Notes: generated by a model from the sequence alone, not told the origin. A stretch of DNA of 64,000 bases from Candidatus Latescibacterota bacterium (GCA_963667175.2 CAXXXF010000003.1:288001-352000); one strand, 5' to 3'; numbered from the stretch's first letter, positions 26,767-60,642 are shown. A program made the numbers and translations.

Positions 26767-26801
26767 GCCTGCCTGCGCCGAAGCCTGCTCGGCAGGCAGG
26801 C
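26767..26801. repeat. 35-bp GCCTGCCTG-ended palindromic mini-element
   Basis: gcctgcctgcgccgaagcctgctcggcaggcaggc; its reverse complement matches 60534-60568 at all but 3 positions. Confidence 0.75.
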
Positions 26802-26967
26802 GCGGTTCTTTTTGGTCCTTTTTCTTACGCGCTATAAGAAAAAGGACGAAGAAGAAAAAAGAAACGGGAGAGGTAAAGTTCGGGACCGCCCGGAACGCAG
26901 TTTCAGTGCGTGTTCTTCCGGCGACAGGCGACGACCTGTTGATGCAGTAAGTGAAGAGGGAAAAACC

Positions 26968-28857
26968 GTGGCATACGTCGACACGTTGTACGAAGAGTAC
27001 TATCTCGAATTCGCCTCCTATTCCATCAAGAACCGGGCAATTCCCAGTATTGACGACGGCTTCAAACCGGTCCAGCGGCGCATTCTGCATGCCCTCCATG
27101 AGATGGACGACGGCAAGTACCACAAGGTCGCCAACGTCGTGGGCCAGACCATGCGGTACCATCCCCACGGTGATCTCTCGATCTTCGGCGCCCTGGTGAA
27201 CCTGGCCAACAAGGAGCTGTTCATCGACAGGCAGGGCAACTTCGGCAACGTCTTCACCGGCGACGAGGCCTCCGCCGCCCGGTATATCGAATGCCGCCTC
27301 ACGCCGCTCGCACGCGAGGTTCTCTTCAACCCGGAGACAACCGAATTCGAGGATTCTTACGACGGCCGCAACCGGGAGCCGCTCGCTTTTCCCGCGAAGA
27401 TCCCCGTCCTGCTCGCCATAGGCTCGGAGGGCATCGCAGCCGGGATGACCACCCGGATTCTCCCGCACAACCTCGTCGAACTGCTCGAGGCGCAGATTGC
27501 CTGCCTTCAGGACAGACCCTTCCGGATTCACCCCGACTTTCTCACCGGCGGGCTGGCGGACGTCTCGCAATATGACGACGGCAACGGGAAGGTCCTGGCC
27601 CGCGCCAAACTGGACACCCGGGATCCGAAACGCATCGTCGTGCGGGAACTGCCCTACGGAACGACAACCGAAACCCTCATTGCCTCCATTGAAGACGCGG
27701 TCAAAAAAGGCAAACTGAAAATTTCCGGCATCAGCGACTATACGACCGATCAGGTGGAAATCGAGATTCAACTCGCCCGCGGCGTGCATACCAAAGATAC
27801 GATCCACGCACTGTACGCATTTACGGACTGTGAAACGTCGATCGCGGCGAATCTGCTGGTGATTCGGGACAACCGGCCGCAGATTACCACAGTGACCGAA
27901 GTGATCGAATACAACACGAGCCGCCTGGTCGACCTTCTCAAGGCCGAACTCAAACTCGAAGAACGCCGGCTTAAAGCGCGGCATCACGCAAAAACGCTCG
28001 AGCAGATCTTCATCGAAAACCGGATTTACAAGCGCATCGAAGACGAGACCACCGCCGAGGACGTCTACCGTGCCGTGTTCGACGGTCTGGAACCGTTCCG
28101 AGAGCACATCAGGGCGGAAGTATCGCGGGAGGACGTGGAGAACCTGCTCAAAATCCCGATCCGGCGGATCTCACTCTACGATATCAACAAGGCCCAGGAG
28201 GAGATGCAGGAAATCCGCGGACGCCTCAGGGAGGTCCGGGCGAACCTGCGCGGCATCCAGGCCTTCGCCATTGCGTTTCTCCAGGACGTCATCGAGAAAT
28301 ATCGCAACGATCACCCCCGAAGAACAGAGATTGCGAGCATCCAGAAAGTTGACGTCCGGGAGGCCGCGCAGCGCAATCTCAAGCTGCGCTACGACAAGAG
28401 CACCGGTTACCTTGGCCACGAGGTCAACGGCGCCGCCCTTTTCGACGTGTCCCCGTACGACCGTGTCCTGGTGATCCGAAAGTCCGGAACGTACTCCGTG
28501 GTGGACGCGCCCGAAAAGCTCTTCGTGGACAAAGGCATGCTTTTCTGCGGCTTCGTGGACGAAAGTCGCGTCTACAATATTCTCTACAAGGAAAACAGGA
28601 CCGGATATCTCTACGTCAAACGGTGCAAGATCGGCAAGTTCATCCTGAACCGGGGGTACGAACTGGCGCCCGAGGGTTGCCGGATCCTGAAACTCACGAC
28701 CAAAAGCGACCGTAAAATCCGGGTCCACTTCAAGCCCAAACCCCGCGTGAGGATCACCGAAGAGGATTTCGCAATAGGGGACTATCCCGTTCGCGGCAAC
28801 AAAGCCAGGGGCATTCGCCTGGCCGCCCGCGAAGTCCAATCCGTCAAGTTCATTTGA
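26968..28857 (+). CDS. parC: DNA topoisomerase IV subunit A
   Basis: GTG start after gaggg. RAIPSIDDGFKPVQRRIL, YHPHGD, QGNFG, catalytic AARYIECRL; short C-terminal domain. Confidence 0.88.
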   Translation: MAYVDTLYEEYYLEFASYSIKNRAIPSIDDGFKPVQRRILHALHEMDDGKYHKVANVVGQTMRYHPHGDLSIFGALVNLANKELFIDRQGNFGNVFTGDEASAARYIECRLTPLAREVLFNPETTEFEDSYDGRNREPLAFPAKIPVLLAIGSEGIAAGMTTRILPHNLVELLEAQIACLQDRPFRIHPDFLTGGLADVSQYDDGNGKVLARAKLDTRDPKRIVVRELPYGTTTETLIASIEDAVKKGKLKISGISDYTTDQVEIEIQLARGVHTKDTIHALYAFTDCETSIAANLLVIRDNRPQITTVTEVIEYNTSRLVDLLKAELKLEERRLKARHHAKTLEQIFIENRIYKRIEDETTAEDVYRAVFDGLEPFREHIRAEVSREDVENLLKIPIRRISLYDINKAQEEMQEIRGRLREVRANLRGIQAFAIAFLQDVIEKYRNDHPRRTEIASIQKVDVREAAQRNLKLRYDKSTGYLGHEVNGAALFDVSPYDRVLVIRKSGTYSVVDAPEKLFVDKGMLFCGFVDESRVYNILYKENRTGYLYVKRCKIGKFILNRGYELAPEGCRILKLTTKSDRKIRVHFKPKPRVRITEEDFAIGDYPVRGNKARGIRLAAREVQSVKFI

Positions 28858-28946
28858 TCCCGATCACGGGGTCAAATCGGGAAGTATCAAAGCGGCCGGA
28901 GGCGCATCCGTCAGCATCTTTCCGCGCCACGGAGAAAGAAGGCTGT

Positions 28947-29711
28947 ATGTCACCCAAGCCCCTTGCAGACCTTCTGGACCTGTCCGGACAGGTCGCAATC
29001 GTCACCGGCGCCAGCCGGGGCATCGGAAAGAGCATTGCCGAGGTCTTTCACCAGGCGGGCGCCGGGCTCATGCTGGTCGCGCGCAATGCCGGCCCTTTGC
29101 AGACGGTCGCCGATGCGCTATCCGGGCGGGGCGACGTGCTCGCGGCGCCGGCCGACGTTGCGGTCGAGGCGCAGGTCAACGCCTTCGTACAAAAGACTGT
29201 CGATGCCTTCGGGCGCGTTGATATCCTGGTCAATAACGCCGGCGTATCCAGCCCGGGGCCCTATACCGGCGTCGACCATGCCGAGTGGCAGCGGGTGATC
29301 GGCGCCAATCTCACCGGCGCGTACCTCTGCTGCCTGGCGGCGGCGCCCCACATGGAAGCACAGAAGAGCGGCCGGATCATCAACGTTTCCTCCATCAGCG
29401 GCCAGACCGGGGGCGTCGCGGGCGGGGTCCACTATGGAAGTTCGAAGGCCGGCATGCTGGGTATGACCAAAACCCTGTCGCGCGACCTGGCATCGAGCAA
29501 CGTCACCGTCAACGCCATTACCCCGGGGGTGATTGAAACCAGCATGCAAATCCCTCCCGAGACCCGCAGCCGAATCAACGAACTCATTCCGCTGGGGTAC
29601 GTCGGCCAACCCGAGGAAATTGCCTACGCCGCCCTCTTCCTGGCCTCGCGGATGGGCGCATACATCACCGGCGCCACGATCGACGTGAACGGCGGGATTT
29701 TGAAAAGATAA
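28947..29711 (+). CDS. SDR family oxidoreductase (FabG-like)
   Basis: TGASRGIG, NNAG, YGSSK, VNAITPG, ITGATIDVNGG. Confidence 0.9.
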   Translation: MSPKPLADLLDLSGQVAIVTGASRGIGKSIAEVFHQAGAGLMLVARNAGPLQTVADALSGRGDVLAAPADVAVEAQVNAFVQKTVDAFGRVDILVNNAGVSSPGPYTGVDHAEWQRVIGANLTGAYLCCLAAAPHMEAQKSGRIINVSSISGQTGGVAGGVHYGSSKAGMLGMTKTLSRDLASSNVTVNAITPGVIETSMQIPPETRSRINELIPLGYVGQPEEIAYAALFLASRMGAYITGATIDVNGGILKR

Positions 29712-29797
29712 AGGCAGCGGTCAGCGATCAGCATTCAGCTACAAACCAAAACCAATCCAGTTGACGGCAGCGCCGTGAAGTGGCAGGGCCAGAAGGA

Positions 29798-29865
29798 CGC
29801 AGACCTCTCCCCCCGGCCTGCCTGCCGGCAGGCAGGCCCCCTCTCCCGGAGGGAAAGGGGGAGGA
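29798..29865. repeat. C/G-rich REP-like repeat carrying the 24-bp perfect palindrome GGCCTGCCTGCCGGCAGGCAGGCC (29815-29838)
   Basis: Seen directly; inverted copy at ~39950-40012. Confidence 0.8.
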
Positions 29866-29883
29866 AGAACAAAGGAGAATGAT

Positions 29884-31074
29884 ATGACAGTTCGTAAGGA
29901 TGAATGGAAGCCAGGTCCTGAAACGATTGAATCGCTGTCCTCGCTGATCCGGTCGAAACCCGAGGAAGTGCGGTGGACCGAAATCGGATGGGAGATAGAT
30001 CTCTGGACGGCACGGCGTCGCGCGGCCGCGGTGAACAGACCGATGTTCATCTGGGCGATGAACGGCAACCCGCTCGGCTGCGTCTGAAACAACGGCATCG
30101 CGGGCCGTGAGTCCGTTTTCTCCCATCCCGACATCATCCGGATCCTCAACGATTCGTATGTTTCCGTCGCGGACAACTGCAGCTATACCCAGACGCAGAA
30201 AGACGCCAAGGGCGAATTTTTCCGCCTCGTGGCGGAACAGGGTCATTACGGCGGGCGCACCGAACCCACGGCCACCCGCCAGGGCCTGTACGCGTGTACC
30301 TCGGACGGCGAGTTGCTGGGGTCCATCAACACGCGGGATGCCGCCCCCCTCCTGGAACTGCTCGAGCAGAGCCTGGAGAGGTGGCGCAAGCGCCCGGCCT
30401 GGGGCGCGTCCGACGATATTCCCGAATCCTATCCCATCGATCCCGGACTCGGATGGTCCTATCCGGACAACGGCCTGGCGCTCAAAGTCACGGTCCGGGA
30501 CCTCCCGCGGAATTCCGATGGTCTGGACGCGCGGCACAACATCGACTTCGCATGGTTTACGGAAGAAGAGGTTCGGGCTCTGGTACCCGGGAACGCCCGG
30601 CCCGGGCAGACCTGGCGCGCGCCGGATTTCTTCACCAAACGCCTCGCCCTGCGCCATTTCATCGACACGGTCCGCGGCCAATCGCCGGGATGGCGGGAAG
30701 CCAACCTGAAGGTAGGAGAGTTCCGGATGACCGTCGAGTCCGCCGAAGCCGGCCTCATCCGGCTCCGCATGGAAGGACGCATCCACCTCGAAGCCGAACC
30801 CACGTATGAAACCAATCCCTTCAGCAAGCTTACGGTGGACAAGCCACGGGGTCTGAACCTGACCCTCTACGGCATTCTCGCGTTCGATTCCCGGCGGCGG
30901 ACGGTCGAATCCTTCGACGCCGTCGCGACGGGCGACCGCTGGGGATATACCACCTACAACGTGCGCTTCGACGATCCCGGCCCCGCGCCCATCGGTTTCG
31001 CCTTCGAGCGCGCGTCGGACGATCCCATCGAACGCACCCCTCCCGCCTCCATCGGGCGGAATTACTTCGCCTGA
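29884..31074 (+). CDS. Putative selenoprotein (396 aa), thioredoxin-like/SelN-like N-terminal domain with C-V-U motif; UGA at 30085-30087 read as Sec
   Basis: aaggag RBS. ORFs 29884..30087 and 30229..31074 share a frame with only one TGA between them: ...WAMNGNPLGCV-U-NNGIAGRESVFSHPDIIRILNDSYVSV... Hairpin right after the TGA. Confidence 0.75.
30091..30117 (+). promoter_or_regulatory. Candidate bacterial SECIS element
   Basis: AACGG-CA-TCGCG-[GGC]-CGTGA-GT-CCGTT stem-loop; G-starting apical loop at +16 after the UGA. Confidence 0.55.
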
Positions 31075-31105
31075 CGCGTCATCCTCAAAACACGTACAGC
31101 AAAAC

Positions 31106-31148
31106 ACGCCCCCGCAACGGATTGTCGACACGTTGCGGGGGCGTTTGT
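31106..31148 (+). terminator. Probable intrinsic terminator
   Basis: acgcccccgcaacg...cgttgcgggggcgt stem followed by ttgt. Confidence 0.6.
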
Positions 31149-31485
31149 GAAGGTGGGGCCTGCCTGCGCCAAGCGGAGCGCGGCAGGCGTGCAAACGGAC
31201 CGGCCGCTTCCTTCGTTGCGGCTCACAAATAAAACACCTTTACAGGCCATGTTGTCACAGCATCGTCACGCATAGACGTGTATATTTGACTCGACGTATT
31301 TGAGCGAAATTGGTCGGAAATATCCGCAAGAACGCAGACGTCGGGAGGAGATGATTCTTCGGCTCACCGGACGTGGACGGAAGAACACTGCAATTCAATG
31401 GAAGGAATATCTGTTTTCATCCGGCTTAGCTATGCTTTGGACCGTGTATTTCTGACGAATTGAGGCGAAAACGGAGGAGAAAAAT

Positions 31486-32223
31486 ATGTCTGTCAAGAGA
31501 TTGATAATAATAACGCGACCGCTTGTGACAATTGCCACGATATTATTTTATCTTGCGATTAGAAGTAGCTTGAGTTGGACTGAAGTAGGAATAATCGTGA
31601 TCGGCGCAATTATCCTCATACCTCTAAATTACCTAACATATTCAGGACGTACAGTTGCCGCAGGTGGGACTGGTTCTGAAGGGAGACTCGTTTCTGAAAA
31701 GAGAGTCGCCACAGTGCCTGTGGGTTCAATCACGATGCTTTTTGTGCTTGCATTTGGTGGCTGGTTAGATCACTTTCGAGGTATTATCTTAGGTTTTATA
31801 GTCGGGCTTATTATTGCACGGATTTTCGCCGGAATGTGTTTTCGCAGTTTGAAGAAAGATCAGGCTGTTCTACTTGATTTTATACGTACGAAAACAAACG
31901 TAGACGAGGCAGATATAACGGCCAATTCATATCTCGGTTGGAGCGGGAGAATATACCTCAGGGTCACGCTTTTAAATCAAACCTTGCGTACTTATCACCA
32001 GCGCGGAGAGGGCAGATATCAGCGATTGGAGGATGTTTATAAAGAGGACACGGTGCACGATATAAGATTACAAGGAGAAACCTTGCGGGGAGATGCACAT
32101 AGTAGGAGTAGTGTTGACAGTGAGGGTCCCGGCCCCGGTAGCGCCTACGAATATACCTACATCCCAGATGAAGATGGATGGCATAGTGCACGGAAAGTAT
32201 CCATAGACGCAAGTTCCGGTTAG
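31486..32223 (+). CDS. Hypothetical membrane protein (about 4 TM helices), low GC
   Basis: ggagga RBS, hydrophobic N-terminal segments, AT-rich codon usage. Confidence 0.65.
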   Translation: MSVKRLIIITRPLVTIATILFYLAIRSSLSWTEVGIIVIGAIILIPLNYLTYSGRTVAAGGTGSEGRLVSEKRVATVPVGSITMLFVLAFGGWLDHFRGIILGFIVGLIIARIFAGMCFRSLKKDQAVLLDFIRTKTNVDEADITANSYLGWSGRIYLRVTLLNQTLRTYHQRGEGRYQRLEDVYKEDTVHDIRLQGETLRGDAHSRSSVDSEGPGPGSAYEYTYIPDEDGWHSARKVSIDASSG

Positions 32224-32379
32224 CCATCACGGACCGCTCAAATGGGGTACTACTCGGCGACTGCGGTCGGCTGACAACCCGCTGAGAATCTTCCATCAGA
32301 ACACGGATCGAAACCAACCGGCCCGCGGCCCTGCCATGCAGTGGCGAAATCCAGCCGGGAGAGTTCAGAGAGAGGCTTT

Positions 32380-32760
32380 GTTGACTTGAAAAAGCTCGTA
32401 ACCATCGGCGGCGGCAACACGCTCCTGATGAGGCAGCGCTGGCGAAGGCTCGGCGTCAACAAGATCCTGGAGGAAGCGTACGCGCGGCATCGTTCTGTCC
32501 GTCCGTCCGGAGCGCGGGCTTCATCTGTTGGTACACCTGGGGCCACAGCGACTCCATGTCCTTCTCCGGCCCCGACGAATGGAGCCGCGTCGAGGTGCGA
32601 GGCACGGGCCTCGACGACGCCTCGGGCTGTCCCCACTACGAAAGCGCGACCGCCGGTATCGAGCGCCGGGACGACTTCCAGCGCATGACGCGCAAGCACT
32701 CCGGCATAGGCATCGCCATCGACGACTTCTGCGCCCTCGAAATCGTCGACGACACTTGCC
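32380..32760 (+). pseudogene. Peptidase E (S51 family) pseudogene
   Basis: GGGNTLLMRQRWRRLGVNKILEEAY in one frame; SAGFICWYTWGHSDSMSF...CPHY...IGIAIDDFCALEIVDD in another. Frameshift(s) near 32485-32510; N-terminus missing. Confidence 0.75.
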
Positions 32761-33084
32761 GACCTTCGTACTGGCGGTTGCCGTCGTGGTTCTATCCCTC
32801 AGGCAGTGATTCAATCCTGAGCTATCATCGTAACAAGAGACATTGGCGACGCCGAAAGCCGTGGGTATACCTCAAAACGGTCTTCCCCGGGCAGGAGTTC
32901 GTGTTCGACGCCGACGGGCTCCCGGAAGCCAGCGTCTGGTTGTGCGAGGTTCAGGTGATCGCAGGAAAGATGGGCGAATCCGCCAACCCTGGACGCTCCG
33001 CGGTATCCGGCAATAGGTCTGCTGCTGTGGCTCTGATTCCTGGGCGTCGGAAAACAAACTTTCCTGCGAACAGTTATCATGTCT

Positions 33085-33280
33085 AGAATTGTGAAACCGC
33101 GCTAAAGCACCTTCCTGGTACTCTTTTCCATCTCCACACAGATCCACCGACGTTCCAGTTTTTCGCGTACTTCGCCCGTCACGCAACTACCGGCGAATGG
33201 GTCAACAACAACGTCTCCCTTGCCCGTCAGCATCCAGACAAAAAACCCGGGTAACCCAGCTGGGAAACGGGGCGACAACT
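33085..33280 (-). pseudogene. C-terminal remnant of an N4/N6 (beta-class, M.PvuII-like) DNA methyltransferase
   Basis: [32 protein letters not shown]...RWICVE, then a frameshift into [11 protein letters not shown]. No catalytic SPPY/DPPY part. Confidence 0.7.
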
Positions 33281-33348
33281 CGCCCGCATCCAGCGTCGGG
33301 CGGATTTGCCTTCCTCCCATGAAGGGGGCAGGTCGAGTCGCGACGTCC

Positions 33349-33377
33349 TTGACACCGGGCGTTGTGTGTGACAAAAT
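33349..33377 (+). promoter_or_regulatory. Putative sigma70 promoter
   Basis: TTGACA-N17-CAAAAT upstream of 33430. Confidence 0.4.
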
Positions 33378-33429
33378 GCCCGAACTTTTGCGGTACAATC
33401 GACGCCGTCGCCAATCAAGGAGATGATCC

Positions 33430-34410: not shown

Positions 34411-34451
34411 CACGCGGGCCGGCCGTTCAATTGGAAATCCGGCATCCTCTT

Positions 34452-39878: not shown

Positions 39879-40012
39879 CGCAGACCTACCCCCTATCCCC
39901 CTTCCCGGGGGGAAGGGGGAACTGTGATCCGCTCAGGGTCTCCCGGTTTTCACCCCCTTTCCCTCCGGGAGAGGGGGCCTGCCTGCCGGCAGGCAGGCCG
40001 GGGGGAGAGGTC
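39879..40012. repeat. Composite C/G-rich palindromic repeat containing the 24-bp palindrome at 39976-39999
   Basis: Related in inverted orientation to 3978-4025, 9001-9040 and 29798-29865. Confidence 0.8.
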
Positions 40013-40327
40013 CCGCCTGTATCGCTGATACATTTCGCCGGGCCATGCCGATATCCCGTGGACGCGGTGTAATCGTCTACCGTCTCACCGTCTTTCGCGT
40101 GTTTCCGGGTTCCCTTTGTGTCTCCGTGTGAGCTGATTTTCGCTTCCAGATGAAAACTCACCGCTGCTCTTCGTGCGCGCCGGCTGTTCTATTGGAAACC
40201 GTCCGTTCGATTTGGTAAATTGGCTGGACGCCATACACAGGGTTAGATTGCAAGAGTTCGATTGATCGATTCCAATATACCCCAGCCGTGCGGCCTCGCA
40301 ACCCCACGCCCTCCCGGAGCGCAGCCC

Positions 40328-41398
40328 ATGTCGACCGCCGTCCGTTTCCGCGCCGCGCACATGCACGCCGTGTCCCGAAACCTGCTGATGGCTGCCGGCG
40401 CCCCCCGCCACGTTGCGGATACCGTCTCCGAAATCCTGGTCAACTCCAACCTTTCCGGCCACGATTCCCACGGAATCCTCCGCATCCCAACCTATCTGGA
40501 CGGCATTGACGGCGGCGCCATCGTACCCGCCGCCGAACCCGAGGTCGTCCGCAAGGGTACGAGTACGCTGACTGTCGACGGACACAGCGGGATGGGCATC
40601 TACACCGCGCGAAGAGCCATCGATCTGGCCATCGATCATGCAGCGGGATCGGGGGTGTGCTGCATCAGTTTCAGGCGCGTGGGCCACTTCGGCCGGCTCG
40701 GCGAGTACGCGGAGATCGCCGCTCGCGCCGGCTGTATTGCCATCATCACCATCGGCGTGGGGACCGTGGACGCCGTCGCGCCCTATGGCGCAACGCGGGG
40801 CCCTTTAGGCACCAACCCCATTGCCGTCGGCGTGCCCACCGGCGACGCGGCCCCATTCATCCTGGACATCGCTACCAGCATCGTGGCCGAAGGCAAGCTC
40901 CAGGTTGCGCGGGCCGAGAACGCGTCCATCCCCGAGGGATCTATCCTGGACAAGCACGGCAACCCGAGTACCGATCCGATGGATTTCTACGACGGCGGAT
41001 ACCTCCTGCCGTTCGGGGCGCACAAGGGCTCCGGCCTTCTGCTGCTGACCTGCCTGCTGAGCGGACTGTCGGGGGTTCCGGAAGTGGAAGAGGGCACCCT
41101 CTCGGGCGCCTACATGCAGGTGCTCCACGTCAGCGCGTTCACGCCTCTCGAGCCCTATCAGCGCGGGATTCGCGCCTTCCTGGATAACATCAAGGCCATC
41201 CCCCCGGCGCCCGGATTCGACGAGGTACTCGTGCCGGGAGACTTCGAACACCGCACCCGCGAGAAGCGCCTGCGCGAGGGATTCGACGTTCCGGCGTCAA
41301 TCGTGGCTGCGTTGCAAGAACGCGCCGACCGGATGAACGTGTCGACGTCGGAAGACGTCATCGAATCCGGCGATGAGGAGAGGTACATGAGGCGGTGA
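40328..41398 (+). CDS. Ldh_2 family oxidoreductase (second copy)
   Basis: NLSGHDSHG, GHFGRLGEY, LGTNPIA, LDIATS, PFGAHKGSGL, VLVPG. Confidence 0.9.
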   Translation: MSTAVRFRAAHMHAVSRNLLMAAGAPRHVADTVSEILVNSNLSGHDSHGILRIPTYLDGIDGGAIVPAAEPEVVRKGTSTLTVDGHSGMGIYTARRAIDLAIDHAAGSGVCCISFRRVGHFGRLGEYAEIAARAGCIAIITIGVGTVDAVAPYGATRGPLGTNPIAVGVPTGDAAPFILDIATSIVAEGKLQVARAENASIPEGSILDKHGNPSTDPMDFYDGGYLLPFGAHKGSGLLLLTCLLSGLSGVPEVEEGTLSGAYMQVLHVSAFTPLEPYQRGIRAFLDNIKAIPPAPGFDEVLVPGDFEHRTREKRLREGFDVPASIVAALQERADRMNVSTSEDVIESGDEERYMRR

Positions 41399-41496
41399 GA
41401 GGGTAGACGTTAGACGGTAGATGACATCTTTGCCCGACTGATTTCTCCTTGATGTCGCCGGCACGAAATGAAAACTCACGGGGCGGACAATCTCTC

Positions 41497-41543
41497 CGCT
41501 CCCCCTCTCCCCCCGGGAGAGGGGGCCGGGGGGAGAGGTCTGC
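41497..41543. repeat. C/G-rich REP-like repeat lacking the palindromic insert (empty-site copy)
   Basis: ccccctctccccccgggagagggggccgggggagaggtctgcg. Confidence 0.75.
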
Positions 41544-41832
41544 GCCTGTCGCCGATAACTCTCGCTGTGCCCTATCGTCGTCCTGTGTACGCGGGATGCT
41601 GTCTCACGTCTCCGGTCTACCCGCCTTTAGCTCTTTCTCTGCCTTTCCTTTGTGTCTTTGTGTCTCCGTGTGAGCTGATTTTCGTTTCAAGCCGATAGCC
41701 TATTGCAGTTTTGGCCAAAAATATACAATAAAAGTATAATATTTATATTGAAAATATATTATAATAATATATATTCTATTAGACTTCACTGGCTGATAGA
41801 AAAAATAGCCGCAAGATGGGTGGATGCTGTCA

Positions 41833-42102
41833 ATGGAGTTCGAATTTGACGAGGTGAAGAGCAGGCGCAACATGGAAAAACACGGCATCGATTTCGCGGA
41901 AGCCCAGCGGATCCGGGAGGATTCCGGCCTGATCGAGATTCCCGCCCGGGTCGAAGACGAACCCATGTTTCTGGTGATTGGCAGACTTCGGGGAACACAC
42001 TGGTCCGGCATCGTGACGTGTCGCGCGGAGAAGGTCCGGATCATATCCGCACGCCGGGCCCGGAAGGAGGAGATCGAAATCTATGAGAGCGAAAGAACTT
42101 GA
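41833..42102 (+). CDS. brnT: BrnT family toxin
   Basis: MEFEFDEVKSRRNMEKHGIDF...RIISARRA; overlaps the antitoxin start. Confidence 0.88.
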   Translation: MEFEFDEVKSRRNMEKHGIDFAEAQRIREDSGLIEIPARVEDEPMFLVIGRLRGTHWSGIVTCRAEKVRIISARRARKEEIEIYESERT

Positions 42103-44263: not shown

Positions 44264-44854
44264 CTACGGTGAATATGCGGGCGTGACCTCGATTCGATGG
44301 CTGCACGGACCGCAAGTGATCAAAAGCTCTACCAGTACATTTGGTATTCGATTCTGCGTTCCGCAGCGCGTGCATTCAATTAGACGTGGCTCTAAAGGTT
44401 GTGCCAGGAATCCCGCACGAGGTGTCTTTCCAAGAGGGATCGGACACATGCTCGCGGCGGAGTCCATCGCACGCACTATTTCAGGTAAAGTCGCCTGGAA
44501 GAATTCTTTGTTGGGATTGACGCGGTATTTTGCCAAAGTATGATGCGTACGTCCTTCAGCAAGGTCGCGGTCTGCCACGTGGACGAAGTAAACCAACTGA
44601 AACTCGCGGTATACCGAAGTCGATGCACTCAATTCTGATACCCGTTCGAAAGGCGGACGCGACGACTGGCCGATCTTGTAGACGGAATCAACAAACGATT
44701 TGTTTCGGCACGCGTATATCCAGCCAACACGTTTGTACTCGCGCCGCCTTCTGTCCAGTGAGGCGATCGCAGCGAAACTCTGATTGATCGGATTATCCAG
44801 AACCACTTTTGTCGTCTGTTCCCGTCCGCCTTGTGCGCCGTGACCGGCGGACAA
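44264..44854 (-). CDS. T5orf172/GIY-YIG domain protein with C-terminal Zn-ribbon (start uncertain)
   Basis: GWIYACRN...YKIGQS.RPPFERVSELS.STSV...AE...H..L..YRVNPNKEFF; CxxC...CxxC. Confidence 0.8.
   Translation of the reverse strand: MSAGHGAQGGREQTTKVVLDNPINQSFAAIASLDRRRREYKRVGWIYACRNKSFVDSVYKIGQSSRPPFERVSELSASTSVYREFQLVYFVHVADRDLAEGRTHHTLAKYRVNPNKEFFQATLPEIVRAMDSAASMCPIPLGKTPRAGFLAQPLEPRLIECTRCGTQNRIPNVLVELLITCGPCSHRIEVTPAYSP
44825..44850. repeat. 26-bp direct repeat, copy 1
   Basis: tccgccttgtgcgccgtgaccggcgg, identical at 45918-45943. Confidence 0.85.
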
Positions 44855-44934
44855 TGACGCGACGGTATATACAGATGATGCCTCAGCCTATAGTGGAATT
44901 CAAGGCGTGAGGCATCGCGCTGTGAAACACCTAA

Positions 44935-45094
44935 CAGCCCGTTGAAAAAGTCCATCCGGGCTGTGTCCGGCCCTTGTGACCGAACTACGGCGTTGCGCTC
45001 CCTCCCCGAATCCAGGGATTCGCGTCGGTCGCGCGCCTTGTCTTCGGCCACAATGACTCGGCCTCGCCTGCAGAGCGACTTTTTCAACGGACTG
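44935..45094. mobile_element. MITE copy 1 (160 bp), IS5/IS1182-like ends
   Basis: TIRs cagcccgttgaaaaagtc / gactttttcaacggactg (17/18); flanked by CTAA direct repeats at 44931-44934 and 45095-45098. Confidence 0.85.
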
Positions 45095-45321
45095 CTAAAC
45101 GGGGAGTTCGCGAAGGATCAATCCTTTGCGAACGTTATCCATTCATTCCTGGCGTTACTGAAACGCGGATACTGAGGAACGTATCACGAGATGAGCGTGC
45201 AACACCTGAAACGCGATATCAGCGAATCCCGTGTACGCCATATCGCCCGAAATTACTACACTGCCAAACAAACGGGGATGGTTGGAGTGCGGCCGAGGTA
45301 TATTGAATTGGTAGGGTAATG

Positions 45322-45480
45322 TCAGACGTTTTGGGAGACTCTTTGCAGGAATGATACCACGGGCTCAAGAATATTGCCCTTGCTTTGAGAAAAACGCCTA
45401 TCAGATTCCCGAAGGGCCTTGACGTAATCGTCCCGATGGTCGCGGATAAGCTGGGGCAATGAACCTTCATATCTAATCAT
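45322..45480 (-). pseudogene. Probable internally deleted Fic-family gene remnant
   Basis: ATG overlaps the upstream stop. MIRYE-GSLPQLIRDHRDDYVKALRESD resembles Fic C-terminal helices; no HPFxxGNGR motif. Confidence 0.45.
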
Positions 45481-50837: not shown

Positions 50838-50865
50838 CGCCCCTTCAGCGGCCTCAAACCGCGGC

Positions 50866-53263: not shown

Positions 53264-53291
53264 TACCCGAACAGACCAGCAAACCACATTG

Positions 53292-53327
53292 AAAAAGCCC
53301 CGGTGAATTTCCCTCCGGGGCCTTTTT
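53292..53327 (+). terminator. Intrinsic terminator
   Basis: aaaaagccccgg...ccggggccttttt. Confidence 0.7.
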
Positions 53328-53342
53328 CGCCTTTGTCAAAAT

Positions 53343-54173: not shown

Positions 54174-54204
54174 GTCGCCGCGCATTGCAACGGAGAATGC
54201 CCGC

Positions 54205-54981
54205 ATGCAGGCCATCGACTTCCACAACTCCTACGTCAGCTGGCGAACGGACTGGGAGGTCCTTCCGTCCAGAACCGCCTCGCACAGACCACCCTGGACG
54301 CTGAACGACGTCCGGGTCCCGATCGACAGCTGGTGCAGGCTGACGGAAAAAGCGTCGGGCGAATCGCGTGAATTCGTCCTGGGCGCCAACTGCAAGACCG
54401 AACGCGTGGGGGTGCCAAAGGATATCTGGACGAGCCCCAACGCGGATTTCGTGCCGGTCTTCACCAACGACCGGTTTCTGATTCTGAAGACCTACGACCG
54501 GGTGGGACGGCGGGTCAGCGCGTACCCGCCGTCGCTCGGCGATCAGCCGGAACGGCAGACCGGCCTGTCCGCGGAGACGTTCGTGTACGTGCGCATCGAT
54601 ATCGCAAGGAACGAGGGACAGGTGATGGGCAACGCCGACGACGTCATCCGGGCCGTATCGGACAACGGCCAACTCGTCGCCCGCACCGAATTCGCGGACG
54701 AGCGGTATGCAGCGACCATTGACTATCCCATCCGGACGATCAACACGAACGAGCGGGACGGATTCTTCCAGACGGATACCAGCCCACTTCTGTTCCCCGA
54801 CCTGAATTGGGATCCCGATGAGTTGATTGAGGGCATGGAACTCGCGTTCGCGGCCTTTAACTCACCGGACTGGATCGAGTTTCTCGTGAGGGTTCCGACC
54901 CCGCTGACCGGCGACGTCAGCGTCTATCACTACGCCAGGTCCGTCAGACTGGACTGCGTGAACACGGTGATACGGATATAA
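54205..54981 (+). CDS. Hypothetical protein
   Basis: ggag RBS, 258-aa ORF with host-like codon usage; no motif recognised. Confidence 0.75.
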   Translation: MQAIDFHNSYVSWRTDWEVLPSRTASHRPPWTLNDVRVPIDSWCRLTEKASGESREFVLGANCKTERVGVPKDIWTSPNADFVPVFTNDRFLILKTYDRVGRRVSAYPPSLGDQPERQTGLSAETFVYVRIDIARNEGQVMGNADDVIRAVSDNGQLVARTEFADERYAATIDYPIRTINTNERDGFFQTDTSPLLFPDLNWDPDELIEGMELAFAAFNSPDWIEFLVRVPTPLTGDVSVYHYARSVRLDCVNTVIRI

Positions 54982-55239
54982 TCGTGCGAAAGACGTCTTC
55001 TGGAACAACGCGGCGGCGCTGTTCGACGTGACCGAGGATTGAACCTCCGACGGTCGAGTCGGGCGCACCAGGCGACTCTGATAGTGCGTCAGGCTTGGGC
55101 GGTCAGGAGAGACAACGGGTGGGGCGATTGTAGGGAAAATAGATCATCTATGCTGAGACCCACCACTAATTATGCAGATTTAGAATTAAATAAAGCCTGT
55201 TATGGACACATCCGGCTTTCTAGACCCGCTCTCCTGTGC

Positions 55240-55585
55240 AGGATACGACCGGATTGCATTGAGTTGACATGATCGATGTACTTGGCTATACTTCCCACAG
55301 CGTTTTTCGCACCACCAACTGTGTCGAATCTCTCAAAGAGTTTATAGAACGACGGATTTGTAATCTGAGGCTATGGAATAACTTCAACCAGCAATATCAT
55401 GAGTCGGCAACAACACGTGCATACTTGAGCCCCAATTACGGAGGACCAAAGTCTTCCGCTGAGCTTTTTGCAAATCCACAGGCGCACGCAGGCTTCTCGA
55501 CTTCACAGGACATCCAACGCGCCTTTGACGCTGACCGAACGCGTCTGCTGTTTCAAACTCAGATGGAACCTGCCCTGAAGATTTC
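55240..55585 (+). pseudogene. Degraded IS256-family transposase C-terminal remnant
   Basis: FRTTNCVESLKEFIERRICNLRLWNNFNQQ resembles the IS256 motif xTTNxxESxN...RR...V..W. Confidence 0.55.
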
Positions 55586-55629
55586 AACGTGCCAGTTATT
55601 TCCAATCCAGTGAGTTGAGGTAAGTCGTA

Positions 55630-56487
55630 GTGAATTCGGGAGAAGGCCCTGTCTGTGTTTCGGTGATCAATATGAAGGGTGGCGTAGGCAAAACCACAAT
55701 TGCGGCGATGCTGTGCTACTATGCGCCATCCAATCTTGATGTCCTCGCTATCGACCTCGATCCACAGGCCAACCTTTCTCAAGCACTAATGGGAGATACT
55801 CGATATAGGCAATTTCTGGACAACCAATCCCCGTCAATCGTCGAAATATTCCGAGGCTACCAACCTCCAAGCCAAGACACGGGATCGCCAGGATTGTTGG
55901 ACTCTGAAGGCGTTGTCGTAGACACGTCTCGATTAGGGGGTCCAAATGTACGAGTCATTCCTTCCAGATTTGATTTTTCCGACAATCTGATAAACTCGCT
56001 GAAGCCTGATGAAACTGTTCTCGCGCGGTGTATCGCAGAGCATTTTCAGGACAAAGACGTCATCATTATAGACTGTGCACCTACCGAGTCGATATTCACG
56101 AGAGCCGCATACCATGCATCTCGCCACGTTCTCGTTCCTGTCAAGCCCGAGTATTTCGCGACAATTGGGTTTCCTTTGCTGAACGACTCCCTCAGATCCT
56201 TCAGAGACAAAAACCGTGGACATCAGATAGATGTGATTGGTGTTGTCATCAACAACTCATCCTATCATTACAGTGGAAACCAAGGTGGTCCTGAAAGGCG
56301 GGTCGCCTTAGAAGAAATACACGAAGAGGCTGAACAAAGTGGCTGGCACGTATTCGAGAACGAGATTCCCCTTTCCCGTGGCTTTCCAAAAATGATGCGA
56401 GGGAATTTTTCTCGCCTTGGAGACGCCGGTCAATTCCGTTTTTTTGCGGAGGAGTTCTTTCAGGCGTTAGGGTTTGACCAGGATTGA
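55630..56487 (+). CDS. ParA/Soj family ATPase (orphan)
   Basis: NMKGGVGKTT deviant Walker A, IDLDPQANLS, IIDCAPT, LVPVKPE. Confidence 0.9.
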   Translation: MNSGEGPVCVSVINMKGGVGKTTIAAMLCYYAPSNLDVLAIDLDPQANLSQALMGDTRYRQFLDNQSPSIVEIFRGYQPPSQDTGSPGLLDSEGVVVDTSRLGGPNVRVIPSRFDFSDNLINSLKPDETVLARCIAEHFQDKDVIIIDCAPTESIFTRAAYHASRHVLVPVKPEYFATIGFPLLNDSLRSFRDKNRGHQIDVIGVVINNSSYHYSGNQGGPERRVALEEIHEEAEQSGWHVFENEIPLSRGFPKMMRGNFSRLGDAGQFRFFAEEFFQALGFDQD

Positions 56488-56501
56488 GGAGGTCGGTTTC
56501 T

Positions 56502-57011
56502 ATGACCAAAGCTAATCTTAAGGAGGCGCTGCGCGGGTTGGTTCATCAGTTTGGATTCGAACAGGTTGGCAGGTCCTTGCGGGAAATTCGCTACTCTGAA
56601 CTAGATGAAAACCGTTCGAAACGAGCCGACGTGTTGAGTCGAACTGTTAGCGCGAAAAAGGCTGAAAAAAAGAAGCCAAAGGTAAGCGCACCGGAGTATG
56701 TCGAGAAGATGAAACTTGGCGCGGACAAGGAGCCAATAGTACTTGAACTTGCTACAAGATTTGAAGGCAAGGACTTCTTGCCAACATTTGGAGATATTGA
56801 TAATTTCTGCCGGTTCTATGGGATTGATACGCCCGTGTCCAGGTCTAGAGCGAGTGCCATTCCGAGAGTCTTCAAATACATAGCAACAATGGATACTGAA
56901 GAAGCCCGGAAGATTCTGGATTATGGGATGTTTTCGGGCCCCTCCCGGCTTGGTCCCATCTCGGATGCGATCAGGAACTACGGAAGTGCCCGTCGAGCCA
57001 CTCGGGTTTGA
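56502..57011 (+). CDS. Hypothetical protein co-transcribed with parA-like gene
   Basis: gaggagg RBS overlapping the parA stop; 169 aa with a Lys-rich linker. Confidence 0.75.
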   Translation: MTKANLKEALRGLVHQFGFEQVGRSLREIRYSELDENRSKRADVLSRTVSAKKAEKKKPKVSAPEYVEKMKLGADKEPIVLELATRFEGKDFLPTFGDIDNFCRFYGIDTPVSRSRASAIPRVFKYIATMDTEEARKILDYGMFSGPSRLGPISDAIRNYGSARRATRV

Positions 57012-57392
57012 TTTTCACAACCGTACATTTCCGCCATTCAATTTAGCGATCAGATATTTACCCATTTGCCGACTTCCGGGGTAATACGTGGCGGAACCGC
57101 GTCTTCCGTCGGTACGAGGTATGTTCGGTGTGTACGTCGCAGGAGCAATATTCGGATCGACCCTGTAATTGACCTTCATACTGGCGTTAAAGAACAGAGA
57201 ATACGCCAAACACAAAGAAGCCGAGGTTTTCACCTCGGCTTCTTTGTTATCGATTCTCTCTTGGTTCGGGCGGTGGTTGTGGCCTGGATGGCGGCTGTGG
57301 AGCTGTTTCAGGTCTTGGAGGGGGCGCTGGTCTTGGGTTATCGGGATTACGCGGTGGCCTAATCGCCCTTTCTTATCCGCCCCTTTTCCCCA

Positions 57393-57908
57393 TCATGCCT
57401 CCCGGATTGAATATTGGTCTACCAGCGAATCGTCCGCTTCTCGTTGGCTTTTCCTGTTTAATTTATCGTTCACTGATATATCTGCCCAACCTGGAATGCT
57501 CGTCGCCCTCTCACCGGCTTCAATAAGGTCCATCAGTACTTCGTAGGCCTCTTCATTATCGATGGCGTTGTTTTCAATCTTTGACCACAACGCTTTGTGT
57601 TTGTCCTGCAAATCGAAACACATCACGCTGACCGCGTGAAGACTGGCGGATTTTCTTGCATGATTCCCAAGTAAGCCGAATACACTGACGGCAATAATGC
57701 CCAAATCTACCACGACTTCAGCCAGCCTGCCAATATAGTCCGAAAACATAAAGCGACCAGCCCCGGCGATTGCGCACAGCGCAAGTCCAATCATGATGGC
57801 ATTGTGTCGCCTGCGATAAACCCGAGAAAGCTTATCGTAGTATCTGGCTGCCCTTTCCACGTCCAGATACTCGTTCCAGGCCATCCTTCGTGTCGTGTCA
57901 CTGACCAT
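57393..57908 (-). CDS. Two-TM SLATT-like membrane protein
   Basis: RYY..L...Y.RRH followed by two TM helices and a helical tail (H...C..L......LW); ggag RBS. Confidence 0.6.
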   Translation of the reverse strand: MVSDTTRRMAWNEYLDVERAARYYDKLSRVYRRRHNAIMIGLALCAIAGAGRFMFSDYIGRLAEVVVDLGIIAVSVFGLLGNHARKSASLHAVSVMCFDLQDKHKALWSKIENNAIDNEEAYEVLMDLIEAGERATSIPGWADISVNDKLNRKSQREADDSLVDQYSIREA

Positions 57909-58165
57909 CGAAGCTCTCCGTTTTCAACGACATCCCGTCACTACAGTGAAACACGGGCCTCATCCTCTCAGCCAAAGGTACCGGATCGACGGCGGCGAGT
58001 CAAGCCATTATCCTTAGATACCGACTCGGTACCGGAAGCTGTTCAATCCGGTAGGCAGATCAGCCGGTTGACTCAGATTTAACTCCGAGAGAAAGTCGCC
58101 CCAGTCTACATTTGCGCCGAGTACGCGCTATCGTTCCCCAAGTCTGAAACGCACCGACGCGCGAT

Positions 58166-58747
58166 TCATACTCCGCCCTGTTGGTCATTCAACAGTCGTA
58201 TTCGCTTTACGATTTCGTCGATGTCGGGCGAATATCCGTCTTCAGTGGAAACATGGATTGTCGGCAGGTCGAAATCGGGCGGCGTATAGTCCCCCGGAGG
58301 CGCGGTTTCGCCGGTTCGCCTGTAGATTTCAACGCGTTTGTCGCCGTGGTAGAACTCCCGGTCCGGATCGTCCAGGCCTCGCTCGAGGTGGCGCCTGGCA
58401 GCCACCATCCCATCGACGGTGCAGACCACGAAAACCGGCATACACAATTCGAGGATCCGGGGGATTCTCGGCGCCCAGACCCTGTGCTGAAACGCCGCCT
58501 CGATGACGACGGAGATCTTCGCGGCGAGGTACCGGTTCACGATGTCGAAGAACAGATCGGTGACCAGGCTGTTGGTATCCGCCGGAAGCCGATCGTGTTT
58601 CACGCCATAGGTGTTGACGTAACCTTCCTTGATCCCGTCGCGGCGGATCACCGGCATCCACAGCCGCCCGGCAAGTTTCCCGGATAACGTGGTTTTTCCC
58701 GATCCCGGCCGACCCGTGACGATGACGCAGGTGGGTTTACGGCTCAT
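58166..58747 (-). CDS. P-loop kinase / AAA_33 family protein
   Basis: IVTGRPGSGKTT, RDGIKE, VVIEAAF. Confidence 0.85.
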   Translation of the reverse strand: MSRKPTCVIVTGRPGSGKTTLSGKLAGRLWMPVIRRDGIKEGYVNTYGVKHDRLPADTNSLVTDLFFDIVNRYLAAKISVVIEAAFQHRVWAPRIPRILELCMPVFVVCTVDGMVAARRHLERGLDDPDREFYHGDKRVEIYRRTGETAPPGDYTPPDFDLPTIHVSTEDGYSPDIDEIVKRIRLLNDQQGGV

Positions 58748-58786
58748 GTATCTACGGCTCGAAATAGGTTGAAGAACAGACCGCGT

Positions 58787-60469
58787 TCAATCCACCGGCA
58801 GTCCCACCCTCTTCCCCTCCTCCAGGTCCATTGTCACCGCACGGAATTGAAAGCCATATCGCTCGACCCCGTCACTTCCCGCGCCATCGCCCGTATCGAG
58901 CACCAGCACCGTCGCGCCTTTCAGGTCCGCGTCCGCGCGAACCTCGTACGTGCCGTTTTTCCGCCGTCCGAACCGCACCGTGCGCCGAGCGCGCTCCCAC
59001 GCGTCGATCTTGGCCGCCGTCCACCACGGCATCCCCCTGTCCCTGGTGTATCCGACGATTTCCCTGAGCCCGCCGCGAACGGCCGGCTCCCGGACGTGCG
59101 CGGGGTGAAACAGGAAGTGGGCGATGCCGTGGTGCTGAAAGGCCCGGTCCGCGAAACAATGCGCCAGGCGGGTGGAACATCGCTTGTGAATATCCTGTAC
59201 GGTCAGGTTCACCTCCAGGACGTCGATCGGCGGGCCGCCGGGCACATCGTCGTCAATCGGAAACCACGGGTGGCACCCCCCAAAGGGGAACCCGTTGGTA
59301 TAGGGCGTATTCGGCCCGCGGCTCTGCTCCAGGGTGATGCCCAGGCGTTCGCACCAGCGGAAGAACTCCAGCCGGCCCTGCCAGCGGAGCGTGTGGTTCT
59401 TGTTCGTCGTGACCGGCCGCCCCGACGCTTCCGTGACCGTTTTCAATTGTCCGGCCAACTCGTCAAATCCCCATCTCAGATGAGCGGTGTCCGGCTTCTG
59501 GTCGTCCGATGCCGTGTGCCAGGTCTGCGCGTCGTAGTGCAGGGCCACCTCGGAACCGTAGTCGTGGATCGCGCGGTAGAACGCCGGTTGATAGTGCCCG
59601 GCCATGATGCACCACGTCGTGTGGATGTCCGCCTCTTGCGTCAAGCGCAATAGAGACCAGCCCAGCGCTTCGTCTCCGCCGTCGGAGTCGTGGGACATGT
59701 GCGCGATCGCGGGCAGGTTGTCCGGCCAGTACCACAGGACGGGCAGGGATACGCCGACCTCCAGGCAGGCGTAGAGGACCGCCTTAATGATGAGCTCGCG
59801 AAACTCGTCCGCTATCGGCTCGAGGAAGACGAGGTTTTCCTCCTCGCCCGGCACGGGCGACCGGTCGCGGTCCAGGTCCAGCGCGAGTCCCTGGATCACG
59901 TCGATCCGCGTGGGACCCGACGCGGGGGATATCGGGCGCCCCTGCTGGATATGCACAACCGTGCGGATGACGTCGGGACCCACGGCGATTGCCAGACCCC
60001 TTCCGGGCCGATGCGCCACCACCCCGTCGCTGGCGCCCATTACCCTCGCCAACGCCGTCCCATCCACGGCTTTGATCCTGCGCCCGCCGAATCCGTGCAG
60101 ACTGCTGGCGAACCCCGCCGTTACCGGATGGTCGTTCTGCGTGACCTGCACGTATCCTTCCGCCATGTCTCCCCGGTCCGTCGCGCCGAACACGCTGTCC
60201 AGCCCCGACATGCCGCCCAGGCCGATCAGCGCGCCGCCCGATTCCACAAATCCTGAAAGCAGTGTCCGCTCCGACTTTGAAAGCGGCATATGCCAGGGAA
60301 GCAATACCACTCGATATCCATCCACAGCGGCCAGGGGACGTTCGATCTCGTCATAGGGTATGCCCGCGTGTGCGAGAATCTCCCGGATGTAATACCCGCC
60401 GTAATAATGCGAAGCGTCCGGCGCCGTCTGTCCATCCGGATCGGTCACCACGCACAACGGAAGGTTCAT
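58787..60469 (-). CDS. Protein with GATase1-like N-terminal domain and polysaccharide deacetylase-like (NodB/GH57 barrel) domain
   Basis: L.GFVESGGALI, SHDSDG, EVALHYD, NHTLRW, FLFHP. The ORF-track N-terminal extension is MITE sequence. Confidence 0.7.
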   Translation of the reverse strand: MNLPLCVVTDPDGQTAPDASHYYGGYYIREILAHAGIPYDEIERPLAAVDGYRVVLLPWHMPLSKSERTLLSGFVESGGALIGLGGMSGLDSVFGATDRGDMAEGYVQVTQNDHPVTAGFASSLHGFGGRRIKAVDGTALARVMGASDGVVAHRPGRGLAIAVGPDVIRTVVHIQQGRPISPASGPTRIDVIQGLALDLDRDRSPVPGEEENLVFLEPIADEFRELIIKAVLYACLEVGVSLPVLWYWPDNLPAIAHMSHDSDGGDEALGWSLLRLTQEADIHTTWCIMAGHYQPAFYRAIHDYGSEVALHYDAQTWHTASDDQKPDTAHLRWGFDELAGQLKTVTEASGRPVTTNKNHTLRWQGRLEFFRWCERLGITLEQSRGPNTPYTNGFPFGGCHPWFPIDDDVPGGPPIDVLEVNLTVQDIHKRCSTRLAHCFADRAFQHHGIAHFLFHPAHVREPAVRGGLREIVGYTRDRGMPWWTAAKIDAWERARRTVRFGRRKNGTYEVRADADLKGATVLVLDTGDGAGSDGVERYGFQFRAVTMDLEEGKRVGLPVD

Positions 60470-60487
60470 TGACAATCTCTTGGTTAG

Positions 60488-60642
60488 CAGCGCGTTGATA
60501 AAGTCAATCCGGTCTGCCTGCCTGTGCGTGTCCGCCTGCCTGCCGAGCACGTCTCGGCGCAGGCAGGCACGCAGACAGGCGCGTCTTGTCTTCGGCCACA
60601 ATGACTCGGCCTCGCCTGCAGAGCGACTTTTTCAACGGACTG
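60488..60642. mobile_element. MITE copy 2 (155 bp) with nested palindromic inserts
   Basis: TIRs cagcgcgttgataaagtc / gactttttcaacggactg; TTAG direct repeats at 60484-60487 and 60643-60646; 3' ~57 bp identical to copy 1. Confidence 0.85.

Follow-up and report, generated by a model that had tools for sequence, protein, structure and literature searches.

Small nested hairpins with base-exact edges in a Latescibacterota genome: a probable family of insertion elements

What accounts for a hairpin that is present in some copies of a repeat and missing, to the base, from others? The question is raised by a 64,000-nucleotide stretch of a Candidatus Latescibacterota genome (GCA_963667175.2, CAXXXF010000003.1:288001-352000; called the window throughout), in which short palindromes bounded by CCTGCCTG and CAGGCAGG lie inside other repeats. 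The window corresponds to C3:288001-352000 of a 5.52-Mb genome in 18 contigs (G000) from a sponge-associated bacterium; the sequencing runs that contain it are sponge metagenomes. The hairpins occur as exact filled and empty pairs, nest in one another and sit in independent contexts; their copy number is lineage-specific and they are spread across phyla. We put at about 0.72 the probability that they form a family of extremely small non-coding insertion elements moved by an enzyme that acts in trans, as it would have to, since the element encodes nothing. The exact edges, the many contexts and the filled/empty pairs agree with the original prediction made from the window, namely a non-autonomous, ultra-small family with conserved CCTGCCTG/CAGGCAGG ends and variable loops.

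Exact edges, empty sites and nesting

Counted genome-wide, as had been proposed, the strict CCTGCCTG/CAGGCAGG pattern has 191 matches in G000, as against 0 for the reversed pattern, and alignments of filled with empty sites differ by exactly the element. In the window, CCTGCCTG-N0-30-CAGGCAGG has 4 matches versus 0.00 expected from 100 shuffles. An iterative script, which peels off the innermost hairpins and then searches again, identified 301 elements of 96 sequence types in the genome: 269 in the innermost layer, 31 in a second and 1 in a third, with 32 elements holding a nested copy. Total length ranges from 16 to 45 bp, the commonest classes being 33 bp (99 copies), 19 (51), 30 (47), 28 (32), 20 (15) and 36 (15).

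When the two 20-bp flanks of each innermost element were joined and searched with blastn-short (no gap, at most 3 mismatches), 178 of the 269 matched elsewhere in the genome, revealing an empty counterpart. Altering the excised length by 2-8 bp left only 0-15 of the 269 with such a match; register shifts of 1-2 bp are not discriminated by this search, a flanking G and the terminal G being interchangeable. The elements occupy 97 flank contexts, 71 of them represented once, the remaining 230 of the 301 elements falling into 26 recurrent contexts. The empty form is known for 17 of the 26 multi-member contexts and for 20 of the 71 single ones. At three host-repeat slots, filled and empty copies number 42 versus at least 28, 25 versus at least 77 and 19 versus at least 58. 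These counts, together with copies in unique sequence within two transposase gene families, dispose of the concern that the palindrome might be limited to one repeat subfamily. In 31 nested cases, removing the inner copy leaves an outer element that is known on its own; the nested insertion point is always S-G^C, found at varying places in the outer hairpin.

DNA-parameter folding and direct counts define an outer stem of 7-8 bp, in which CCTGCCTG pairs with CAGGCAGG or, in a second class, with CAGACAGG at the cost of one mismatch. A 2-nt bulge on one arm gives the element a polarity. Inside lie an inner stem of 5-6 bp and a loop of 4-5 nt, variable in sequence; the forms of 16-21 bp consist of the outer stem and a loop of 0-5 nt. 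The conserved ends, 8 bp long, are the only part common to all size classes. In 29 distinct 33-mers (91 copies) the outer stem and its CG bulge are invariant. The inner stem of the same 33-mers is paired in 123 of 145 cells, compared to 47-70 of 145 when the partner is shifted, and two of its pairs covary (C-G 17 and A-T 8 at one; A-T 6, C-G 7 and T-A 1 at the other). Thus, ends and bulge are conserved while the interior is constrained only to pair.

In the window, the elements and their host repeats, including one that resembles a MITE (a transposable element of the miniature, inverted-repeat kind), are the following.

26768..26800, minus strand: class I element, 33 bp, imperfect palindrome (bulge on the 3' arm, the canonical orientation, when read on the minus strand)
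29817..29836, no strand: mini form, 20-bp perfect palindrome, at the GG^CC slot of a ctctcccccc/gggagaggggg host repeat
39978..39997, no strand: mini form, second identical 20-bp copy, in an inverted copy of the ctctcccccc host repeat
41516..41537, minus strand: empty host repeat, ...gagggggG^Ccgggggg..., with the G^C junction between 41525 and 41526 (C3:329516-329537)
8891..8912, plus strand: empty host repeat with one mismatch, cgt^cc (C3:296891-296912)
60535..60567, plus strand: class I 33-mer, innermost layer, polarity opposite to that of the 26768 copy
60517..60579, plus strand: class II 30-bp element CCTGCCTGT...CAGACAGG, middle layer, reading CCTGCCTGTGCGTGTCCG^CACGCAGACAGG and split by the 33-mer after its 18th base
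60493..60638, plus strand: MITE-like repeat, short variant, outer layer, with ends cgttga(t/a)aaagtc...gactttttcaacgg
44940..45090, plus strand: MITE-like repeat, full length, with three empty slots (44963^44964, 44995^44996, 45031^45032)
31159..31191, minus strand: degenerate 33-mer whose right end has 2 mismatches, compared with an 11-copy type

All five sites named in the original prediction were found in the window as described. The perfect palindrome reported at 29815 and 39976, and lacking at 41519, is the 20-mer present in two identical copies and absent from the empty repeat. What had been described as a 35-bp version at 26767, inverted at 60534, proved correct in architecture and in opposite polarity, but the two sequences differ in the inner stem-loop; the bases directly outside 26768-26800 are g and c, hence the figure of 35 bp. 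The three layers inferred near 60534 are real, consisting of a 33-mer in a 30-bp hairpin in a MITE-like repeat, and the degenerate copy noticed near 31158 is the 33-mer with 2 mismatches. Excision of the 60535 33-mer yields a 30-mer that is present 24 times genome-wide, and the same 33-mer-in-30-mer pairing occurs 10 times in the genome. Relative to 44940-45090, the repeat at 60493-60638 lacks the segment from slot 1 to slot 3, the nested hairpins marking the fusion point; no empty form of this short variant was found among the flank-context clusters. In other genome copies, the slots of the MITE-like repeat hold 28-, 19- and 30-mers.

The host repeat of the 20-mers (29800-29860, 39950-40015 and 41500-41545) has arms cctctcccccc, ccccctctccc and gggagaggggg, with two alternative pairings possible; its hairpin slot lies between the first and second arms.

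Junctions, insertion sequences and spread across lineages

In G000, a G precedes the element in 262 of 301 cases and a C follows it in 262 of 301, the bases further out being G/C-rich. A wider sample is provided by 83 distinct contexts from metagenome and viral contigs (see below), where position -1 is G in 58, A in 16, C in 7 and T in 2, and position +1 is C in 31, G in 29, T in 17 and A in 6. From these counts, the sole general feature of the target is a purine, usually G, before the canonically oriented element. Filled/empty alignments of host repeats and of insertion sequence (IS) copies show no target duplication beyond the one-base ambiguity. The duplication of GGCC previously proposed is literally there at 29817 and 39978, both framed GGCC...GGCC, but these are sites in a single host repeat; other contexts have no 4-bp duplication and the usual junction in the genome is G^C. 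The GGCC...GGCC appearance arises because a GG^CC target meets the CC...GG ends of the element. As we picture it, the element would enter directly after a G (in G000, most often at G^C), with exact edges and without duplication; insertion would be seamless, and sites appear to switch between filled and empty. In G+C-rich DNA it may need hardly anything beyond G^C, and would then land in G+C-rich repeats, in itself, in the transposase genes of IS and, with the frame kept, in genes of phages.

Two IS families in G000 have both filled and empty copies. An IS256-family IS (PF00872) has 8 copies (C15:605625-607079 and seven others), 6 of them empty and five of these 100% identical. One copy, 99.9% identical, carries a 30-mer in frame, its product being 438 rather than 428 aa long; another, 95% identical, carries the same 30-mer together with a 20-mer and a 19-mer, at three unique sites. 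An IS3-like IS has 14 copies of 93-97% identity (C6:661903-663455 and 13 others), and 3 of the 14 carry one 33-mer at one site. Junctions in these IS read cag^tgg, cgg^tgg, gcg^gag and g^cgg. In a tree built with the insertion masked, the filled IS3-like copies do not form a clade, and they show two flank haplotypes. For this non-monophyly to arise, either the site must have received the 33-mer more than once, or conversion or seamless excision must have taken place. Both IS families look active.

Relatives of G000 bear on the direction of change. All 14 congeners have the ctctcccccc repeat in its empty form, among them G008 (14 empty copies, 0 elements) and G004 (5 empty copies, 0 elements). 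Since it is present in these element-free genomes, the empty form is not a product of deletion from the filled one, contrary to the possibility that the empty copies were hairpin deletions. Copy numbers in single-contig congener genomes vary from 0 (G008) and 1 (G014) through 11 (G001) and 28 (G007) to 180 (G009). Two other genera of the family have 140 and 132 copies, with different inner-stem types dominating. Orthologous spacers were compared as well; congener genes are 81-92% identical while spacers are mostly unalignable, making the comparison informative only at the 29817 site. Logan contigs from the sponge metagenome, which are short and break at repeats, contained only joints between paralogous copies and no clean presence/absence at an orthologous site. 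The 26768 element is located in repeat DNA between gyrB/parE-like and gyrA/parC-like genes. This spacer (26530-26960) comprises some 400-420 bp of repeat DNA including the 33-mer; in relatives it measures 39 bp (G009), 83 bp (G012) and about 35 bp (G013).

The family is not confined to G000. A pattern for the 35-mer matched 9 contigs of metagenome-assembled genomes (MAGs) with the same outer stem, the CG bulge and a compensated inner stem; the MAGs are labelled Verrucomicrobiota, PVC group, Tepidisphaeraceae, Bacteroidia, Actinomycetes, Patescibacteria, Desulfobulbaceae and unclassified 'bacterium'. A 33-mer pattern matched 11 viral contigs and at least 120 metagenome contigs; 80 of the latter and the 11 viral loci were analysed. 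The metagenome set comprises 54 distinct elements in 82 matches, with flank G+C of 0.34-0.75; flank G+C in the viral set is 0.59-0.72. The Patescibacteria MAG, only 0.9 Mb in size, has 18 copies, including minis and nested forms, the Desulfobulbaceae MAG has 7, and 1-6 were counted in viral contigs 14-44 kb in length. Three of the viral contigs have copies within long open reading frames (ORFs); these copies are 21, 27, 30 or 33 bp long, all multiples of three, and the 20-mers of those contigs are located at ORF edges. That one outer stem recurs in several phyla, in a Patescibacteria genome of 0.9 Mb and in phages suggests that the family has spread horizontally and that a widespread DNA-insertion activity has gone unrecognised.

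Candidate movers and competing explanations

How might so small an element move? A tentative answer is movement as a folded single strand through a 'peel and paste' reaction of the HUH type. The single-strand route is favoured by the seamless junctions, by the conserved bulged hairpin and by a size that leaves no room for a double-stranded circle or a paired-end complex. In the 'peel and paste' cycle of IS200/IS605, ends with bulged hairpins are excised and inserted seamlessly, without target duplication, next to a short motif on one strand; these IS have two different subterminal hairpins and guide sequences, and the target is 4-5 nt long. The elements described here share the seamless junctions without duplication, and excision would fit the non-monophyly of the filled IS copies. 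They differ in that a single hairpin reaches the very ends and that the insertion point is preceded by no more than a G; strand bias was not seen and a cognate TnpA not found. More ambitiously, the CCTGCCTG hairpins could be pan-bacterial, phage-carried 'nano-transposons' (16-36 nt; 8-bp stem and 2-nt bulge), inserted and excised seamlessly as folded single strands by an enzyme that is not a RAYT (a transposase discussed below) and is itself either very widespread among bacteria or phage-carried; this picture as a whole is possible but doubtful.

Several observations weigh against insertion by an enzyme in trans, or against the single-strand version of it. No transposition event was observed, the case resting on static comparison of sequences. 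The elements bracket no family of ORFs: 14 ORFs lie between elements and, judged by their first residues rather than by a family-library scan, all look ordinary. In G000, no IS has these termini, and 435 orphan half-motifs cluster only into degenerate members of the family. A lagging-strand, single-strand mechanism predicts a polarity bias and none is seen: polarity is unbiased with respect to gene strand and to the sign of the GC skew (Fisher p 0.29, 0.42 and 0.21 for three classes), in a test that is weak since the genome is a draft and many copies are passengers of larger repeats. Target specificity is weak in the 83 wider contexts. Finally, some change seems to occur in place. Like G000, the relatives G009 and G013 have the site of the 29817 20-mer upstream of the same gene; at the orthologous position G013 has no element, whereas in G009 a remnant of 53 bp is left, made up of a 33-mer that lacks its first 10 bp and the 30-mer nested in it. 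The 20-mer replaces a nested 33-mer remnant at this one orthologous site, and some short forms would thus arise in situ. The 20-mer equals any CCTGCCTGC...CGGCAGGCAGG 33-mer minus 13 internal bases, and some minis probably arise by collapse of 33-mers rather than by primary insertion. Minis also appear at new sites, as demonstrated by the IS256-family copy whose 19-mer and 20-mer each occupy a unique site. Twelve slots hold at least two size classes; gene conversion between repeats could account for these mixed slots, and for the non-monophyletic filled IS, in the absence of new insertion.

Among the alternatives, the one that survives best, improbable as we consider it, is that the hairpins are ordinary repetitive extragenic palindromic (REP) elements moved by one of the REP-associated tyrosine transposases (RAYTs) of G000. 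REP sequences and REPINs, with their RAYTs, are treated in Nunvar 2010 (PMC2817692), Bertels & Rainey 2011 (PMC3116915) and Di Nocera 2013 (PMC3733652). In size, copy number and hairpin form the CCTGCCTG elements resemble REPs: both are G+C-rich imperfect palindromes of 20-40 bp, present in hundreds of copies, mostly intergenic and sometimes intragenic, which combine with other repeats into mosaics and are regarded as mobile DNA of a non-autonomous kind. G000 has three genes with a Y1_Tnp domain (RAYT-like, about 200 aa), the Patescibacteria MAG with 18 copies has five, every genome with at least 75 copies has at least 2 Y1_Tnp matches, and seamless junctions are what IS200/IS605-type reactions produce. 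According to Nunvar 2010 (PMC2817692), a RAYT gene is flanked by two cognate REPs in inverted orientation and REP abundance follows the presence of the RAYT. The Y1 genes of G000 do not conform to this layout as far as CCTGCCTG elements are concerned, since they carry other palindromes: the C3 RAYT is flanked by GAGGGCA..TGCCCTC and the two C7 RAYTs have a GTAG-tagged palindrome inside the ORF and before it. In 15 loci of G009, G011, G015, G016 and G021 the Y1 gene is never enclosed by a CCTGCCTG pair, and the one Patescibacteria locus examined has its own, different palindrome and no CCTGCCTG bracketing. Nor does Y1 presence clearly track copy number (Y1 subfamilies pooled): G006 and G012 have 34 and 20 copies with 0 Y1 matches, while G004 and G017 have 0 copies with 2 and 32 matches, respectively. 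According to Di Nocera 2013 (PMC3733652), one end of a REP bears an unpaired tag, GTAG or CGTC; the CCTGCCTG elements have neither, their flank logos showing only G at -1, C at +1 and G/C-rich neighbours. The suggestion of a RAYT as the mover, made in the original prediction, finds no support. Further differences from REPs and REPINs are that single hairpins, and not dimers alone, insert and that mutual nesting is routine; also, the CCTGCCTG outer stem is found across phyla and in phages, whereas REPIN-RAYT systems have been described as mostly vertically inherited.

Some features of the Y1 genes were noted in passing. Around the C3 gene (L001:1000-2500, corresponding to C3:192305-193805) copies of GAGGGCA..TGCCCTC alternate in a classic REP/RAYT layout. 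This pattern counts 60 with strands summed, from which about 30 sites are estimated, and CCTGCCTG 33-mers are inserted in the loop of the palindrome, for instance at C15:146459, 575469 and 578187. In the C7 genes (L003:1438-2037 and L002:1441-2040, 96% identical) a perfect GTAG-tagged palindrome, GTAGGGGCAGGTTTGAAACCTGCCCCTAC, is translated in frame, a second copy lying just upstream; here a REP lies within the gene presumed to encode its own transposase. Y1_Tnp-like domains also occur in open frames of 1203-1441 aa in G007, G009, G011 and G016 (for example, G009:C1:4547970-4548200); no match in such a very long frame was reported in G000.

A second alternative, with smaller odds, makes the hairpins the smallest of MITEs: two 8-bp terminal inverted repeats (TIRs) that a DDE transposase would move in double-stranded form, while a target-site duplication (TSD) of 1-2 bp, G or GC, would be concealed by the terminal bases of the element. 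That the 8-bp ends alone are common to all size classes would suit such an origin. Moreover, a junction that can be shifted by one base is equivalent to a 1-bp duplication of G, and most sites in G000 read GC...GC. Yet +1 is C in only 31 of the 83 outside contexts, so that duplication of GC is no general rule; these termini are shared by no IS or longer element in G000, and a duplex of 16-33 bp presumably lacks the length to be bent into a paired-end complex. Prokaryotic MITEs (Correia, Nezha and others) are similar in being non-coding, in having inverted-repeat ends, in depending on an enzyme in trans and in occurring in viruses as well as cells. The ranges given for MITEs in the definition quoted from PMC11602168 are larger, however (50-800 bp, TIRs of at least 10-15 bp, TSDs of 2-10 bp), and the present elements fall outside all three in size, in their 8-bp ends and in lacking a TSD. 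Being below the thresholds of MITE finders, and of IS finders as well, they would be missed by both and do not show up in standard annotation.

Third, and very improbable in our estimate, the hairpins might be immobile passengers of larger repeats, with hairpin deletion and gene conversion generating the empty and short forms and the odd distributions. The 230 elements in recurrent contexts, the internal loss that distinguishes elements at the 29817 site and the filled IS copies on two flank haplotypes, as expected from conversion, all speak for such a process. So do short MITE-like variants that are fused exactly at their hairpins, suggesting recombination between elements. Passengers would not, on the other hand, be expected in 71 single contexts or as three different elements in a single IS copy, each at a unique site that is empty in the related copies. 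Neither would they explain empty host repeats in element-free genomes or the same hairpin in unrelated flanks (G+C 0.34-0.75), across phyla and phages. Slippage over a repeat of only 1 bp would not yield base-exact edges in 178 of 269 cases. A last proposal, that the hairpins are selected functional sites (terminators, protein-binding or uptake sequences) arising by recurrent point mutation, is the least probable of all, since presence or absence of whole units, exact edges, nesting and intra-ORF copies are unlike point mutation, no Rfam family matches the elements and a terminator scan gave 3 sites versus 5.0 expected, even though 26783-26801 with its T-run fits a terminator-like pattern and the elements are mildly enriched between convergent genes (63 of 267 elements versus 650 of 3531 spacers). 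Crude ORF overlap proved uninformative for calling elements genic or intergenic, G+C-rich repeats being covered by spurious ORFs.

Related elements and consequences

Insertion by an enzyme in trans thus remains the preferred reading, and the description of the hairpins as an untagged, nested, cross-phylum family of insertion elements akin to REPs and to the small dispersed repeats (SDRs) of cyanobacteria is well supported. In behaviour, the SDRs come closest: nesting (32 cases here) and the 12 slots with at least two size classes have reported parallels there. SDR4-6 of Nostoc and relatives (Elhai et al. 2008, Genome Res 18:1484) are reportedly 21-27 nt long, embedded in longer conserved sequences, nested and found replacing one another, with no known enzyme. 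They differ from the CCTGCCTG elements in sequence and taxon. SDRs are named, in PMC3116915, among short interspersed palindromic repeats whose origins are still to be elucidated. IS1397, ISKpn1 and other IS that target REP hairpins, cited in the same source, are precedents for mobile DNA landing in other palindromes. These are full IS with transposases. Tiny G+C hairpins also spread in organelle genomes, as mitochondrial GC clusters or double-hairpin elements, and Rickettsia palindromic elements are palindromes tolerated in frame inside proteins; the organelle and Rickettsia elements are unrelated to the present ones in sequence, host and size. Literature searches returned no description of a CCTGCCTG hairpin family, the sequence CCTGCCTG itself matching only primers.

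If the family is indeed mobile, its members stand near the lower size limit of mobile DNA, with only an 8-bp stem and a bulge conserved; should the 'nano-transposon' picture hold, they would be the smallest mobile DNA known and a class missed by IS, MITE and REP annotation. The CGTC superfamily of REPs 'apparently lacks a dedicated transposase', in the wording of Di Nocera 2013 (PMC3733652). Identifying the mover would bear on the long-open question of palindromic repeats without a transposase, the CGTC REPs and cyanobacterial SDRs among them, and could yield a very compact insertion system. Effects on G000 itself are of several kinds. Operon spacers are split by elements, and transposases gain 10-11 residues in length: 10 were measured for the IS256-family copy, while an insert of 33 bp implies 11 for the IS3-like ones. 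The elements also appear to act as recombination points at which deleted variants of larger repeats are created.

Two minor sets of observations concern the surroundings of the elements. A context atggatggaCCTGCCTGCTGA...ATG was considered as a gene start and rejected, the frames downstream being short and unrelated. A recurrent context ...acATGGATGGACCTGCCTGCTGA...GGCAGGCAGGATGAA... (C2:289333, C15:553458, C18:42769 and others in G000) contains a possible mini-ORF of 6 codons that ends inside the hairpin and is followed by ATG; the frames beyond it are short and have nothing in common. In the sponge-metagenome runs, summed contig depth reaches up to 218 in the bins 44676-45342 and 41341-42007 of the window; these bins coincide with the MITE-like and ctctcccc repeats, suggesting that both are abundant community-wide.

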